Assembly (NCBI GenBank): GCA_046538485.1
Contig: JBKHIT010000001.1
Location: forward strand, 128,001-192,000
Source of the DNA: Candidatus Brocadiia bacterium
GTDB lineage: Bacteria; Planctomycetota; Brocadiia; SM23-32
DNA: 64,000 nt
Direction of reading: 5' to 3'
Shown piece after piece: positions 1 through 10,878 of this stretch; the first letter of the stretch is position 1, and every line of letters starts with the position of its first letter. The position numbers and the translations under genes were made by a program. Under the pieces are notes generated by a model. That model did not search any database and was not told where the DNA came from. It was given only the letters and a program-made list of their open reading frames with translations.

Positions 1-384
1 TGCTCCAGTAAACTGTCCACACATACCGCCTCCTTTTACACCGCCGGCCGAGTGGTTGCTCTCTCCCATTTTCTTCACCACTCGCATCGGACTTCTCCTA
101 TCGAACGGAGGATCGTCTCAACCGGATCACCTGACTCTGTCAGCAACCGCCGTCAGGCTACCTTTACGATGCCTACGGATGTTCGTTTTCCTACGGTCTA
201 TGCGTTTGCCTGGCCGCTCGGACTGACTTTGAGTCCCCGCCCCAAATGGAACGGTTTCCCGTCTGGCGACTTTGTCACTGCGCGTCGGGGTCTCCCCCGG
301 CAGTCAGACTACGTGTCCGAAATGAGAAATTGACACGACTGGGACTCTCGCCCAGCCAGCTTACCCAGCCTTACCTGGGCACAC
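1..384 (-). mobile_element. Group II intron, 5' end (domain I); the rest, including any RT ORF, lies beyond the left window edge
   Basis: The minus strand starts GTGTGCCCAG at 384 (GUGYG 5' consensus). It contains segments typical of group IIB domain I (GGCGAGAGTCCC; AACGAACATCCGTAGGC; GGCGGTGTAAAAGGAGGCGGTATGTGTGGACAG). A hairpin loop GTTCGAT (106-100) and CGTAAA (168-163) are complementary to the upstream exon. Confidence 0.85.
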
Positions 385-457
385 ATTCAATGAGCGTAAA
401 CCCCGTTCGGCAATAAGAGGTAATCCGTTTATTTTTCCGTCGCGTTCTGATAACCAA
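385..457 (-). CDS. 5' exon of an intron-interrupted prepilin-type N-terminal cleavage/methylation protein
   Basis: A TTG start at 457 downstream of AGGAG/GGTAGG reads (M)VIRTRRKNKRITSYCRTGFTLIE plus one T, then the intron begins. This is a basic leader with the G|FTLIE motif, in tandem with two intact paralogues. Confidence 0.85.
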
Positions 458-515
458 ACCTACCGATTCTCCTGTTTTTGTCCAGCTCGCAGGTAATTCT
501 CACACAATGATTGGT

Positions 516-1394
516 TCAATACCAGGGCGGTGTGGCCCCTTTCCAACCCGGGGGAGCATCCGGCGCCGCCTGGGCGCAGTCCATTCCGCCCCCGGAATGC
601 CACCACCATTCCGATCCCCATTCGACGTGGCCATCGGCAAAGAGAAGATTGCCACCTTCCGGCCCCCACCCGGTAGCGTGTCGCCAATCTCCACCATTCC
701 TTTGAACGTTGCCGCACGGGTTACTACTACCTGATAGCGGGTACATTTCCACACTTATTGTGATTTCGCTGTGTCCCTTAAGCAGGTTCAGTCGGTTCAT
801 CCCCTCCTTGACAGGCCCCATTGTCCATCCTGGCCCTACGCCGTAATGATCGTAGTACCAGACGTCTGCCCGTCGCCACATATGGTGGTTCGACTGCCAT
901 GAGAGCATATGCATATGTTGGTGGGTCAGATGGCCAGTGACCTCAACGCTTCCCCAATCCCTGTATATCACCTCTTTTGTCATACTCTCTGGAAAGTATC
1001 CACCTCCATTTTGCGCGAGAGATTTCACACTACAGTTATTGCGACCCGGGTGAGAAGGACAGACCCAGACGTGAAATCCCTCGGTAAATCCCCACAATTC
1101 ATTCCGTTCCTCTTCAATTGCCCATCTGCTCCAGCGGTCCGTATGGGGGCGTTGTGCCGGCAATCGACTCTCATGATTCATGATAAACGAAAGGATCGAC
1201 ATTCCCTGCTGACGGTAGTTACTGGCGCACGTGATCCGCCTTGCTGATTCCCGCGCCCGTTCCAGCGCCGGCATGAGCATGGCCGCAAGAATTGCGATGA
1301 TCGCGATCACAACCAGTAACTCAATAAGGGTAAATGCCCTACGAAAACAGGGCATGACTCCTCTATTTCGCTGTTCTGTTTCAATAAACCTCAT
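516..1394 (-). CDS. Prepilin-type N-terminal cleavage/methylation protein with C-terminal H-X(n)-DG motif (DUF1559-like)
   Basis: [37 protein letters not shown]...[13 protein letters not shown]. Confidence 0.9.
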
Positions 1395-1541
1395 AGCTCT
1401 CGCTCCTCTCTATGTTTCGATATGTGACAAATTGCTAAATCACCACATTTTTCGCTTTACAATGGAACGAATCAGCGCATCGACAACTCCGCGTAAGCGG
1501 CGGCCCAATCCTCGGGAAGGCTAACTGAAGATGTTTTCGTT

Positions 1542-2504
1542 TCATTTTGCCGGTTCTCCGTATTGGCGGCACCAGCCGACGAAATTATCCCAGTGGCTGA
1601 CACCCGTGGAACCGTATGCACTACCGTTGGCCAGGATGTGGTAACTTCTATTTGGATCCTGAATCCATCCTGGTTCGGCAACTTCGCCGTAACTGATCCA
1701 GCGCGCCGATCCATCGTAGAATACGGCATTCGATCCCTCTCCCCCGTGGCTCATCGCGCGCCATTGATCAGCATACACCGTTTCCTGGGCGCAGGTGATC
1801 AGAACCGGCGAAACGCCTGTTCCCGGATCGTTTTTGTTCCGCCAGTTTTCCACGATGTAACGGAGCCGCGTATTCTCTCTCCCAACCCAGTAAGCGGGAG
1901 CGTCGGGGCTATACTGCCAGAACTGGTGGGCGACACCGAGGTAGTATCGATACGAACATATCCCACCCTCCACGTCATAATCATACTCGCCGTTCAGGTC
2001 TGGCCATGTCTTTCTACTGCCCCAGAACGTGTGACGGGGATCATTGAGACTCCACTGCGTGCCGCTCATGCCGTCTGGTTTTCGCCACGCGGGGCAAAAA
2101 AGCAGATCCGCGGATTGAAAATATCCCATCCGGACGAATGTGCCCCAGGCCACGATCAATCCGTTCGACCCATTGGCCTTGTGCGTGCGGACGGCCTGGT
2201 GCCATTCCGTAGTTCCCGTGCTGAAATTCGTTGTGTGGGCCGTATAGATCGATTCCTTGATACTCGCAGTCGTTGCCCAGGGCAAACGCTCATCATTGTC
2301 GTTGGCGAACATCATCACCTGTATCCCGTTCTGTCGTCTATCACTCAAACACGCCGCCCGCGTGGCGGCATCCCGGGCTTGTTCCAACGCCGGCATTAAC
2401 ATCGCGGCCAGAATTGCTATAATGGCGATTACAACCAGCAGTTCGATAAGTGTAAAGGCCTGCCCAAATCGACGATTCACTTTCTCTTTTCGAGCGACCA
2501 ACAT
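1542..2504 (-). CDS. Prepilin-type N-terminal cleavage/methylation protein (DUF1559-like)
   Basis: [53 protein letters not shown]. Confidence 0.9.
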
Positions 2505-2522
2505 AATGTTTGTTCCTCTACT

Positions 2523-3992
2523 CTAAGGATGTATCATTTCCACAGCCAAATCCAGTCTTCGGAGAGTATTTTCGACGCTGATCTCGCCGTTCAAGAAAGG
2601 CGCCCTGAAGCTCAAACTTTTTTCCAACCGATCCGAACCGGCTTCCTGCCACCTGAGCGTGCTGGATTTGAGAGCTGCATGGACACCTTTTTCACCAGCC
2701 GGATGTCGGGCCAGCCACTCATCAGAAAGCGCCACGTCTCGAAGAACCGAGGGATTGCCGGGAACCTCCCCAAACTTTCGCTGGACCTCCGAGGAACACA
2801 GATATCGACACAGGTCCAATGCTGCGCCGGGTTCGTCGGTCTCTTTTCGAATCGCAAGTAAAACCAGGTAGGCTTTTATCCGACAATCGGCGGCCACCGG
2901 AACCGGATCTGCCGACCATGAGAAATCGGCTTCCCTCTGGAAACGCGGCACCTCAAAACTGCAATGATGGTGGAACGCCAGACGTCCCTCCAGAAACAGG
3001 CCGCTCGTTGCGCCCTCTTTCGCAGGCTCAAACTGGCCGGCGCGGAAAGATTCGAGAACTTCCCGTGCCCGTTCTCTGTCGAGTTGGATCTGTCCGTCCC
3101 CCAGATACAATGCCCCCGTCGCCATTAACCAATCGACAAATCCCGTCAGAACCAGCCCATGCGGGGGCTTTTCGCCTGCATCAAAACAGCGATTGACCGC
3201 CCTTGCGCGGTCCATGACCTGTTGCCACGTCGTCGGCGCATCGGTCGGGACTTCGGCTTCCTGAAGCAGATCAAGATTCCTGAAAAGAAAGTGAAGGGTC
3301 AGTGAAAACGGCAACCCCGGCAGCTCCTCCCGCCGGGAAACCCAATCCGCCACGACCTGCAGGAGTTCGTCGCGATCCCCGCCCAGAGCCTCATAGGAGG
3401 GAAACGAAAGAAAATCCTCGGTCCCGAGGTGATTGATAATCTCCGGCGTGGTCTGGATAATATCCACCGACCGATCGGCCAGGATATCTTCGATATGGCC
3501 GTCCCGGCCCGTAAGCAGTTCGCATTCCACCGACCGGCTCCGTCCCTCAAACTCGTCCAGCACATCCCGCCAGATATCGATGTTGCGGGGAAGCAGTTCC
3601 GATACGTAAACGGTCAGCCCTGCCGTGCGAACACGCGGAGCCAGAAGCTCGCTTACTGAATTCGGCTTTGTCGCCTCCTGAGCCGGACGGGAGTCTGAGG
3701 ATTCTTCTCCAACCAACTGCGGGGCATTCTCCGCAACAAACGATCCGCTACGCCGTCGCGTGTAGATAAGTTCCTGCTCTTTGAGTTTCTCAACCGCTTC
3801 AACGGCAACCGTCTGGCTGACTCCGTACAGATCCTGCATCTCGCGCAAAGAAACCAGCCTGTCTCCCGCCGTCAGCTCCCCCGCCGCGATACGCCGTCGG
3901 ACATCATCTACGATCGTATCGCACTTACGCGGACGCTTCAGAGACGTCTCAACACCATTCCGCTCCTGCTGGTCCACCGTCGAACCTGCCAT
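2523..3992 (-). CDS. GntR-family HTH regulator fused to an ABC-type sugar solute-binding domain
   Basis: N-terminal wHTH (IAAGELTAGDRLVSLREMQDLYGVS...RRRSGSFV) and a C-terminal SBP-like region (LFRNLDLLQEAEVP..PTTW, FLEGRLAF). Start moved to ATG 3992, which has a GGAGG RBS and an upstream promoter. Confidence 0.85.
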   Translation of the reverse strand: MAGSTVDQQERNGVETSLKRPRKCDTIVDDVRRRIAAGELTAGDRLVSLREMQDLYGVSQTVAVEAVEKLKEQELIYTRRRSGSFVAENAPQLVGEESSDSRPAQEATKPNSVSELLAPRVRTAGLTVYVSELLPRNIDIWRDVLDEFEGRSRSVECELLTGRDGHIEDILADRSVDIIQTTPEIINHLGTEDFLSFPSYEALGGDRDELLQVVADWVSRREELPGLPFSLTLHFLFRNLDLLQEAEVPTDAPTTWQQVMDRARAVNRCFDAGEKPPHGLVLTGFVDWLMATGALYLGDGQIQLDRERAREVLESFRAGQFEPAKEGATSGLFLEGRLAFHHHCSFEVPRFQREADFSWSADPVPVAADCRIKAYLVLLAIRKETDEPGAALDLCRYLCSSEVQRKFGEVPGNPSVLRDVALSDEWLARHPAGEKGVHAALKSSTLRWQEAGSDRLEKSLSFRAPFLNGEISVENTLRRLDLAVEMIHP

Positions 3993-4035
3993 AAGGCCTC
4001 CCAATCTGTGTATTCTCTGCACCCTTTCTGTATAT

Positions 4036-4064
4036 ATACTACCCTTTTTGTGCGTTTTTGTCAA
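4036..4064 (-). promoter_or_regulatory. Sigma70-type promoter of the GntR-SBP/prepilin operon
   Basis: TTGACA-17 bp-TAGTAT on the minus strand. Confidence 0.7.
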
Positions 4065-4152
4065 CCTGTTTTTGCTCGTATATGGTCCATAATAGTTCCC
4101 GAAGTCCAGCACTGGCGGCCGAGGCGGACAATTTGCCGGTGGTTCCACGGGC

Positions 4153-4186
4153 AAGGGACAGAAGGGACTTAAGGGACGAAAGGGAC
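4153..4186 (+). repeat. Short periodic repeat, AAGGGAC x4
   Basis: aagggacag aagggactt aagggacga aagggac (9-nt period). Confidence 0.75.
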
Positions 4187-10689: not shown

Positions 10690-10878
10690 AGCTTATCTCC
10701 TGACAAAAAATGCGGATTGCTTTTCAGTATAAGGCATTATCAGACGGGGAAACGAGTGGGACACACGCTCAATCAGGCTGAATCCCCTGGAACTTCTCCG
10801 AGCCTCCCTATCGAAGAAGTCTTAAGCGATCATTACTGCTTTCCTCAACACGTGATCTTAATGTCCCTTTCCCGGGAT

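Follow-up and report, generated by a model that had tools for sequence, protein, structure and literature searches.

A group II intron lineage with apparent specificity for the FTLIE^L motif of prepilin-like genes in a Brocadiia bacterium

RmInt1 is an example of a site-specific group II intron without an endonuclease (En) domain, and a Bacillus cereus intron with a 3' extension is a partial precedent for the element described here, an intron that splits a prepilin-like gene of a Candidatus Brocadiia bacterium. The split gene lies at the left edge of the window, by which we mean the whole stretch of 64,000 nucleotides (nt) that was analysed (C44:128001-192000 of the source genome G000, which is 88% complete and comprises 143 contigs). 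In 2010, Leon et al. reportedly described IIC-attC introns whose outward-facing promoters drive the gene next to them; beyond a possible promoter, the module carried by the present lineage consists of a ribosome binding site (RBS), a start codon, a leader, and a cleavage motif in frame with the 3' exon. In PMC4424553, most bacterial group II introns are placed outside housekeeping genes, and three target specificities are distinguished (homing sites, terminators, and attC), of which the homing site is the commonest. The same review describes the twintrons of Methanosarcina acetivorans, which involve repeated site-specific homing and nested introns. PMC3919590 and PMC4024640 report that the surface-layer gene array of Clostridium tetani contains, at one locus, an alternatively splicing group II intron with several upstream 5' splice sites.

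The element in the window is very probably a mobile group II intron of full length that lacks an endonuclease and splits a prepilin-like gene of the type IV pilin/pseudopilin kind; it belongs to a lineage that homes specifically into FTLIE^L (^ marks the insertion point), and its splicing is presumed to be aided by the maturase. At the level of sequence comparison, the copies establish the split of FTLIE^L, the site specificity of the lineage, a partial explanation of that specificity by exon-binding site 1 (EBS1), and the dual coding of domain VI. The lineage can be regarded as a homing-site intron with a site that a gene family multiplies more than 100-fold. One element consequently has many targets per cell, and its pairing loop tolerates synonymous codon variation. 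A full-text literature search, with subscription journals and intron databases outside its reach, found no report of a prepilin or N-methylation motif that houses a group II intron, nor of a domain VI that encodes an exon motif.

The homing introns without En (classes D, E, and F of PMC4424553) share with the present lineage the reverse transcriptase (RT) and maturase, the 5' GUGYG, domains V and VI, the pairing of EBS1 with intron-binding site 1 (IBS1), and the occurrence of truncated derivatives or derivatives without the open reading frame (ORF). In contrast to these introns, the site is a coding motif found in more than 100 paralogues per genome and not a single-copy gene or a mobile element, G or U of EBS1 stand opposite synonymous positions, and domain VI doubles as a coding copy of the target. 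The group IIC introns are similar in that they include the nearest solved RTs and lack En, and no convincing EBS2 was found here either. However, according to PMC4424553, they insert after terminator stem-loops or at attC, whereas the target here is a coding motif recognized by a 7-bp EBS1. The C. tetani intron likewise lies inside a surface-protein gene family, and the choice of the 5' exon sets the N-terminus on a common 3' exon; in the present lineage, one motif is occupied by many copies across different genes, and it is the intron that encodes the alternative N-terminus. As in the Methanosarcina twintrons, repeated homing into a sequence carried by the intron family leads to nested or adjacent copies. 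The Methanosarcina introns lie outside coding genes, whereas the carried site here is a protein-coding motif and the arrangement is head-to-tail (L095, a metagenome contig).

The split gene and its intron

The intron extends beyond the left end of the window. This part is numbered on L009 (C44:120001-129000), and a window coordinate is the L009 coordinate minus 8000. The split gene and the intron comprise the following features.

385..457 of the window, minus strand: exon 1 of the split prepilin-like gene, with a TTG start, the leader MVIRTRRKNKRITSYCRT, G-F-T-L-I-E, and the first base (T) of a Leu codon
1..384 of the window, minus strand: the 5' 384 nt of the group II intron, with the 5' GTGTG and part of domain I; the remainder is at C44:126318-128000 (L009 6318-8000)
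100..106 of the window, minus strand: EBS1 GTTCGAT (GUUCGAU) in a domain I hairpin loop, intron nt 279-285, pairing with the last 7 nt of exon 1
L009 7711-6437, minus strand: RT/maturase ORF of 424 amino acids (aa), intact, with FADD (RVT_1 1.6e-41, GIIM 3.7e-11)
L009 6408-6318, minus strand: domain V/VI (RF00029, full model 1-77, E 0.0012, 33.6 bits)

The split reading frame and its junction are exactly as the initial annotation had given them. The minus-strand ORF 457..371 translates as MVIRTRRKNKRITSYCRTGFTLIECVPR followed by a stop; its Glu codon ends at 386, a single T stands at 385, and GTGTGCCCAGG begins at 384 on the same strand. Exon 1 (457-385, minus strand, ...GFTLIE plus T), which is preceded by GGAGAA about 9 nt upstream of the TTG, runs into GTGTGCCC, and the unspliced frame meets a stop after 4 codons (ECVPR and stop). 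G-F-T-L-I-E is followed by a Leu codon, and the insertion point separates the first base of this codon from its second. The whole intron is 2067 nt long (L009 8384 to 6318, minus strand). Exon 2 (L009 6317-5707, minus strand) follows directly with TG CTG GTG GTC ATT GCG ATC ATC GCC, and its protein starts (L)LVVIAII...; the prepilin frame is resumed to the left of the window, as had been predicted, with T^TG-CTG-GTG-GTC. The frame is open for 202 codons past the split Leu codon, or 208 counting from the F codon of domain VI. Joining the exons in silico gives GAA-T^TG-CTG and restores an intact prepilin motif, which is complete only once the exons are joined.

Five hallmarks of mobile group II introns were found, namely the 5' GUGYG, domain V, domain VI with a bulged A and an AY end, an RT with a maturase domain, and EBS1-IBS1 pairing. 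The 5' GTGTG (window 384-380) is invariant in the five aligned copies and present at all other 5' junctions. The ORF scores 415.1 bits on TIGR04416 (group II RT/maturase equivalog, cut-off 300), and no HNH/En endonuclease domain was detected in the 424-aa protein. Domain V/VI and the 3' AY end, which the initial annotation had left to be located outside the window, are represented by the RF00029 match and by a bulged A and AC end: the intron 3' end reads ...CTAATAGTAC / ...CUUCUAAUAGUAC, with ...TAGTAC as the last bases, and domain VI of this copy has 16 of 16 positions paired, the bulged A, and the AC tail. Three other genomes have copies in which the domain V element is conserved. An Rfam scan of window 1-3000 alone gave no match because domain V lies outside the window. 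The intron RNA outside the ORF amounts to about 790 nt. The nearest solved RTs are those of group IIC introns (7uim, 4.2e-61; 6ar1, 8.9e-58), but the hallmark of this group, a very short EBS1 and a position at attC or behind an intrinsic terminator, is absent, as the junctions lie inside a coding motif and EBS1 has 7 nt.

We infer that the window's copy splices because all of its parts are intact. The intron would be transcribed with the gene, and the maturase would assist a splicing reaction in which the bulged A of domain VI is the branch point. Once joined, the exons would give the mRNA of a normal prepilin, which would be cut between G and F by a prepilin peptidase. Two prepilin peptidase genes (PF01478) score above the cut-off in G000.

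Insertion site and its recognition

Copies of the intron were compared in G000, in G029 (another genome of the same family), in G147 (another family of the same phylum), and in further sequences including L095, which carries a member of the lineage; an RT at least 60% identical was taken as lineage membership. Each of the eight 5' ends that a blastn search with the intron detected in G000 has (G/A)FTLIE and a single C or T directly before it, and therefore a chance position is excluded. When three other genomes and one metagenome contig are added, 14 of the 14 complete 5' junctions lie at FTLIE plus 1 nt; in two further junctions, which coincide with contig starts, just GAAC or TAGAGC is visible, in agreement with the site. 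The junction reads FTLIE C^GTGTGCCCGG in L010 (RT 72% identical), EFTLIE T^GTGTG in L088 of G029, and RFTLIE C^GTGTG in L095. The three junctions of G147 (RT 60% identical; C260, C134, and C79) read GFTLVE C^, GFTLVE C^, and GFSLVE C^. Eight of the ten 3' ends lead into LLVV(I/V) (C44, L010, L133, L135, L134/L097, L136, L137, and L138). The exceptions are C20a, in which the frame is broken, and L095, in which another intron 5' end follows.

Five of the copies in G000 are located at contig ends and have identical intron starts of 42-51 nt beside unrelated leaders. Their 3' ends were not found in the G000 bin, and the depth of domain I is about 5-8x that of the flanks in the best-holding DNA run, X1. 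These copies appear to represent a recently spread multi-copy repeat that broke the assembly. Such introns interrupt metagenome assemblies at prepilin genes, and annotation pipelines will misread the resulting split or oddly started genes. The copy at C20:82316 is an ORF-less deletion form that was also seen as a read joint, C120 is a fragment, and derivatives that are 5'-truncated or internally deleted exist. In four DNA runs, paralogous contigs were seen to diverge at the 3' splice site, and both the ORF-less deletion form and the excess depth of domain I were apparent; a tandem intron joint was found in none of the four.

More distant introns do not share the site. The FTLIE junction occurs at none of the 27 other RT loci of the phylum search (RT 41-52% identical; one of them is a second intron in G000) and, among the 77 loci from a peptide-pattern scan of genome contigs, which mostly have distant RTs, only at L010. 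The other group II introns of G000 sit at sites other than FTLIE. They include at least one further, unrelated family (C99:9831-9908, C65, C10, C79, and C113; RF00029 up to 50.4 bits), whose RT at C99:8606-9769 is 43% identical and whose 3' flanks are not prepilin genes. The RT search of the phylum yielded a single genome of the same lineage, and a pattern scan of metagenomes only two contigs.

The specificity is explained in part by EBS1, which pairs with ATTGAAT of exon 1 through five Watson-Crick and two G-U pairs and is kept in all four aligned copies that reach this loop. GUUCGAU is the exact complement of AUCGAAC, that is, Ile(ATC)-Glu(GAA)-Leu(C..). Its G and U residues face the third codon positions of Ile/Val and Glu and the first position of Leu; therefore, synonymous variants (ATC/ATT, GAA/GAG, C/T) still pair. 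The occupied exons vary (ATT/ATC, GAA/GAG, C/T) only opposite G or U of EBS1, and all of them form 7 pairs. In G147, the loop GUUCUAU accompanies the exon ATAGAGC, and another copy combines the loop GUUCGAC with the exon GTCGAGC (Val-Glu). Pairing of EBS1 with IBS1 is 7/7 in six copies and 6/6 in L097, where only 6 nt of the exon are visible. The three covarying variants strongly support the EBS1-IBS1 interaction and point to retargeting to motif variants (ATA-GAR and GTC-GAR).

G000 contains 135 uninterrupted F(T/S)L(I/V/L/T)E-LLVV sites, of which 88 pair with GUUCGAU at 7/7 positions, 44 at 6/7 (mostly ATA), and 3 at 5/7. All 135 sites are followed by a T, which is compatible with a fixed IBS3, and the residue at -1 is G in 77 and A in 56 (133/135 together). 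The motif heads more than 100 paralogues per genome, which provides many targets, and the intron probably spread recently among these genes. The initial annotation had proposed that the intron exploits the invariant motif of an expanded gene family and finds in it many homing sites per genome. The 14 junctions, which place homologous introns at the same codons, and the 135 sites, 88 of them fully paired with EBS1, support this proposal.

Some loci show further rearrangements at this motif. A second intron type with a different domain V (GCCGTATGCTCAAAAAGG...CGTACGGTTTG) occurs in L138 (G147:C56) and L136 (G147:C36). In L138 it is lodged in domain V of an FTLIE-type intron in a twintron-like arrangement, and in L136 its domain V is fused to an FTLIE-type domain VI. 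An orphan start resembling exon 1 is located at window 10768-10785 on the minus strand (C44:138768-138785). It reads ...GFSLIE plus C, then GTGTGTCCCAC and unrelated sequence, in which neither LLVV nor an intron body could be detected. Two further orphan starts are broken at the same point, near 12650 of C7 (GFTLIE C^GGCCCG) and at C112:39535 (AFTLIE C^GCGCCGG). Loss of an intron, or rearrangement mediated by one, may have left the orphan starts behind as scars.

A second copy of the motif in domain VI

The 3' strand of domain VI, which comprises the last 19-21 nt of the intron, encodes G-F-(T/S)-L-(I/V)-E in frame with exon 2 in eight of nine copies. The segment reads RTGFSLIE in L097/L134 and L137, RTGFSLVE in L136, AAFSLVE in L138, LRFTLIE in L010, FRFTLIE in L095, VKFTLIE in L133, GKFTLIE in L135, and LGFTLIE in C20a. 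In the window's copy (C44), the exon-2 frame read back gives ...RRGFLLIV^LLVV, in which the motif has drifted. An unconstrained minimum free energy fold forms a helix between the bases after domain V and the coding strand in eight of nine copies, with one bulged base and a 2-nt tail. At helix positions 1-12, 95 of the 96 cells from eight copies in register are standard pairs (the degenerate C20a is left out of this table), and two-sided, compensatory changes occur at positions 1, 3, 5, 7, 9, and 10. The bulged base at -8 is A in all nine copies, and the tail is AC in eight and AT in one. Domain VI is dual-coded. The coding strand of the helix changes mostly at synonymous positions, and the opposite strand follows. 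In this lineage, a ribozyme domain doubles as a protein-coding sequence identical to the displaced exon end.

The terminal heptamer of the intron is also a perfect complement of its own EBS1, with ATCGAAC/GTTCGAT in L010 and L095 and ATAGAAC/GTTCTAT in L097. C20a, L133, and L135 end in ATCGAAC as well; domain VI of C20a is degenerate, and L133 and L135 are fragments without the EBS1 region. The motif in domain VI would also recreate the homing site at the 3' border of the intron. In L095, a contig of 2292 nt with a 30-nt terminal overlap, the intron 3' end abuts an intron 5' end, and in L088 of G029 a domain-VI-type leader precedes the intron 5' end.

Domain VI occurs in two forms. The compact form has 54 nt (C44, L097/L134, L136, and L138), and the exon-2 frame is open for 54-85 codons upstream of the exon, through domains VI and V. 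The long form has 175-208 nt owing to an insert in the terminal loop (L010/L094, L095, L133, L135, and C20a). In all five long forms, a GGAGG-type site stands at the end of the insert, 6-9 nt ahead of an ATG in frame, which is followed by a basic leader of 10-17 residues that enters (R/K/G)FTLIE. L133 and L135, which belong to one genome, are 78% identical in domain VI, and their exons 2 are at the shuffled baseline beyond nt 75 (51% vs 51%). L133 is truncated at the 5' side and consists of no more than domain V, domain VI, and the insert; in L149, a third fragment of G029, domain V is again joined to the insert. L094 is 99.6% identical to the intron of L010, starts 4 nt before the first base of the intron, ends 2 nt short, and includes the insert. 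Because L133 and L135 are alike in domain VI and not in exon 2, and because L133, L149, and L094 retain the insert, the insert belongs to the repeated element and not to the host genes. By analogy with the known retrohoming pathway, the truncation of L133 would fit a reverse transcript that started at the intron 3' end and stopped short.

The exon-2 frames behind remnants without a ribozyme core are intact (287 aa in L133, 351 in L136, 347 in L137, and 364 in L138). L137 is a mini-derivative of 130 nt, in which an upstream ATG with GGAGG reads through the remnant into GFSLIE-LLVV. A sigma-70-like promoter was recognized in only one of the three domain VI loops scanned.

Two observations on sequence near this motif can be added. 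The loops of L010, L094, L095, L133, L135, and C20a contain a poly-T tract between TTGAC/TTGC-like and TATAAT-like boxes. Its length varies, with about 7 T in L094 and about 9-10 T in the near-identical L010, and the spacer length changes with it. If the boxes are a promoter, this variation could act as a phase-variable switch. In C73 of G000, three genes (plus strand, about 36577, 30185, and 18917) have a doubled motif, AFTLIE-LPFD(G/R)..., with a 63-nt insert that starts right after FTLIE plus C and holds AGGA, ATG, and a short leader. This insert looks like what would remain, in frame, of the 3' end of an intron, as in the mini-derivative L137.

Competing explanations and the genomic surroundings

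The second motif may serve as a spare N-terminus of the host gene, an explanation that we put forward tentatively and to which we give somewhat less than an even chance. The domain VI motif, together with the Shine-Dalgarno (SD) site, the ATG, the leader, and possibly a promoter in the long form, would let exon 2 be translated from unspliced RNA. The peptidase would remove all residues before F, so the mature protein would be the same as that from spliced mRNA; the insertion would be nearly harmless even when unspliced, and truncated or deleted remnants would become permanent 5' ends of working genes. If the segment is translated, the intron cancels the cost of its own insertion, which bears on the spread of introns through coding genes and could inform the design of gene-targeting introns. 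It is also possible, with a slightly lower probability, that the copy at the 3' end is untranslated, being either a relic of exon capture (e.g., through use of the splice-site-like FTLIE^L in a tandem paralogue downstream) or a selfish re-creation of the homing site with tandem stacking. The last 7 nt of the intron, exactly complementary to its own EBS1 in L010, L095, and L097, point in this direction, as do the ATCGAAC ends of C20a with its degenerate domain VI and of the fragments L133 and L135, the abutting ends in L095, and the leader before the intron 5' end in L088. The promoter-like site in just one of three loops and the decay of the motif to GFLLIV in the window's copy also agree with it. 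However, mimicry of the target leaves unexplained the SD site, in-frame ATG, and basic leader in 5/5 long-loop copies, as well as the intact ORFs of 285-364 aa behind the unspliceable remnants L133, L136, L137, and L138, and the tandem or circular contig L095 could be an assembly effect of the flanking repeat. The initial annotation had held that splicing is needed for this pilin. This may be correct for the window's copy, since the decay of its domain VI motif to GFLLIV makes the split gene most likely dependent on splicing; elsewhere in the lineage, the 3' FTLIE segment, in some copies with an RBS, a start, and a leader, may allow expression without splicing.

Two further explanations concern the intron itself. 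The window's intron might be a dead relic and the split gene a pseudogene, in which case the shared position would record past homing only. Truncated or inactive copies make up the majority of bacterial group II introns according to PMC4424553, the score of domain V/VI is below the Rfam gathering threshold, and the domain VI motif of this copy has drifted. We consider a relic unlikely, however, in view of the intact 424-aa RT/maturase with 415 bits on TIGR04416, the retained 5' GTGTG, the match of domain V to the full RF00029 model, the fully paired domain VI (16/16) with its bulged A and AC tail, the 7/7 pairing of EBS1 with IBS1, and the 202 open codons of exon 2. Alternatively, the shared position could derive from one ancient insertion copied by gene duplication, without site-specific homing, as the host genes are paralogues of one expanded family. 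This is highly improbable: the intron copies are far more alike than the host genes, with identical 5' ends beside unrelated leaders and, in L133 and L135, 78% identity in domain VI against a 51% baseline in exon 2 beyond nt 75. Moreover, EBS1 covaries with the exon, 5'-truncated copies exist, and 135 paralogues are uninterrupted.

Several points weigh against a functional intron that homes specifically into FTLIE^L. Splicing and the ligated junction are predicted from the DNA sequence. The RF00029 score (33.6 bits) is below the gathering score of 40, and the Rfam group-II-D1D4 models, which also served to check the "IIB-like" label of the initial annotation, gave no match on L009 at E <=1; therefore, the ribozyme core appears to be divergent and unclassified. 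Complementarities of 5-6 nt were found for EBS2, none of them at a position consistent across copies, and the scan gave no consistent EBS3 (or delta-delta') partner either. Many copies are fragments, as in the usual decay of bacterial introns, and an intron-less allele of the split gene was not seen in the four DNA runs. The lineage is rare in the representative or sampled sets that were searched (2 of 132 genomes by class-wide blastn and 2 of 401 in a phylum sample with an 18-mer). The genomes that carry it are without exception incomplete metagenome bins, in which several of the junctions coincide with the ends of contigs.

Upstream of the split gene, three genes are located on the same strand.

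516..1394 of the window, minus strand: uninterrupted prepilin-like gene, upstream paralogue 2 (N_methyl 4.4e-07; TIGR02532 and TIGR04294), with an H-X9-DG-like C-terminus
1542..2504 of the window, minus strand: uninterrupted prepilin-like gene, upstream paralogue 1 (N_methyl 2.5e-07)
2523..4154 of the window, minus strand: GntR-family regulator with a fused solute-binding domain, at the head of the same-strand cluster (GntR 5e-11, SBP_bac_8 8.5e-09)

The neighbouring paralogues match PF07963 and TIGR02532, and features of the Planctomycetes-Verrucomicrobia-Chlamydiae (PVC) type were noted, namely the H-X9-DG domain and a weak Verru_Chthon match. The three genes are as the initial annotation had described them; the operon that it had drawn from them, in which they would be joined by the split gene, is suggested by the shared strand and the short gaps.

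The strand of the split gene also carries, about 430 nt beyond its stop codon in the downstream direction, a match to the Rfam Acido-Lenti-1 RNA (L009 5214-5278, C44:125214-125278, minus strand; 30.2 bits, E 0.00089), which is below the gathering score of 37.

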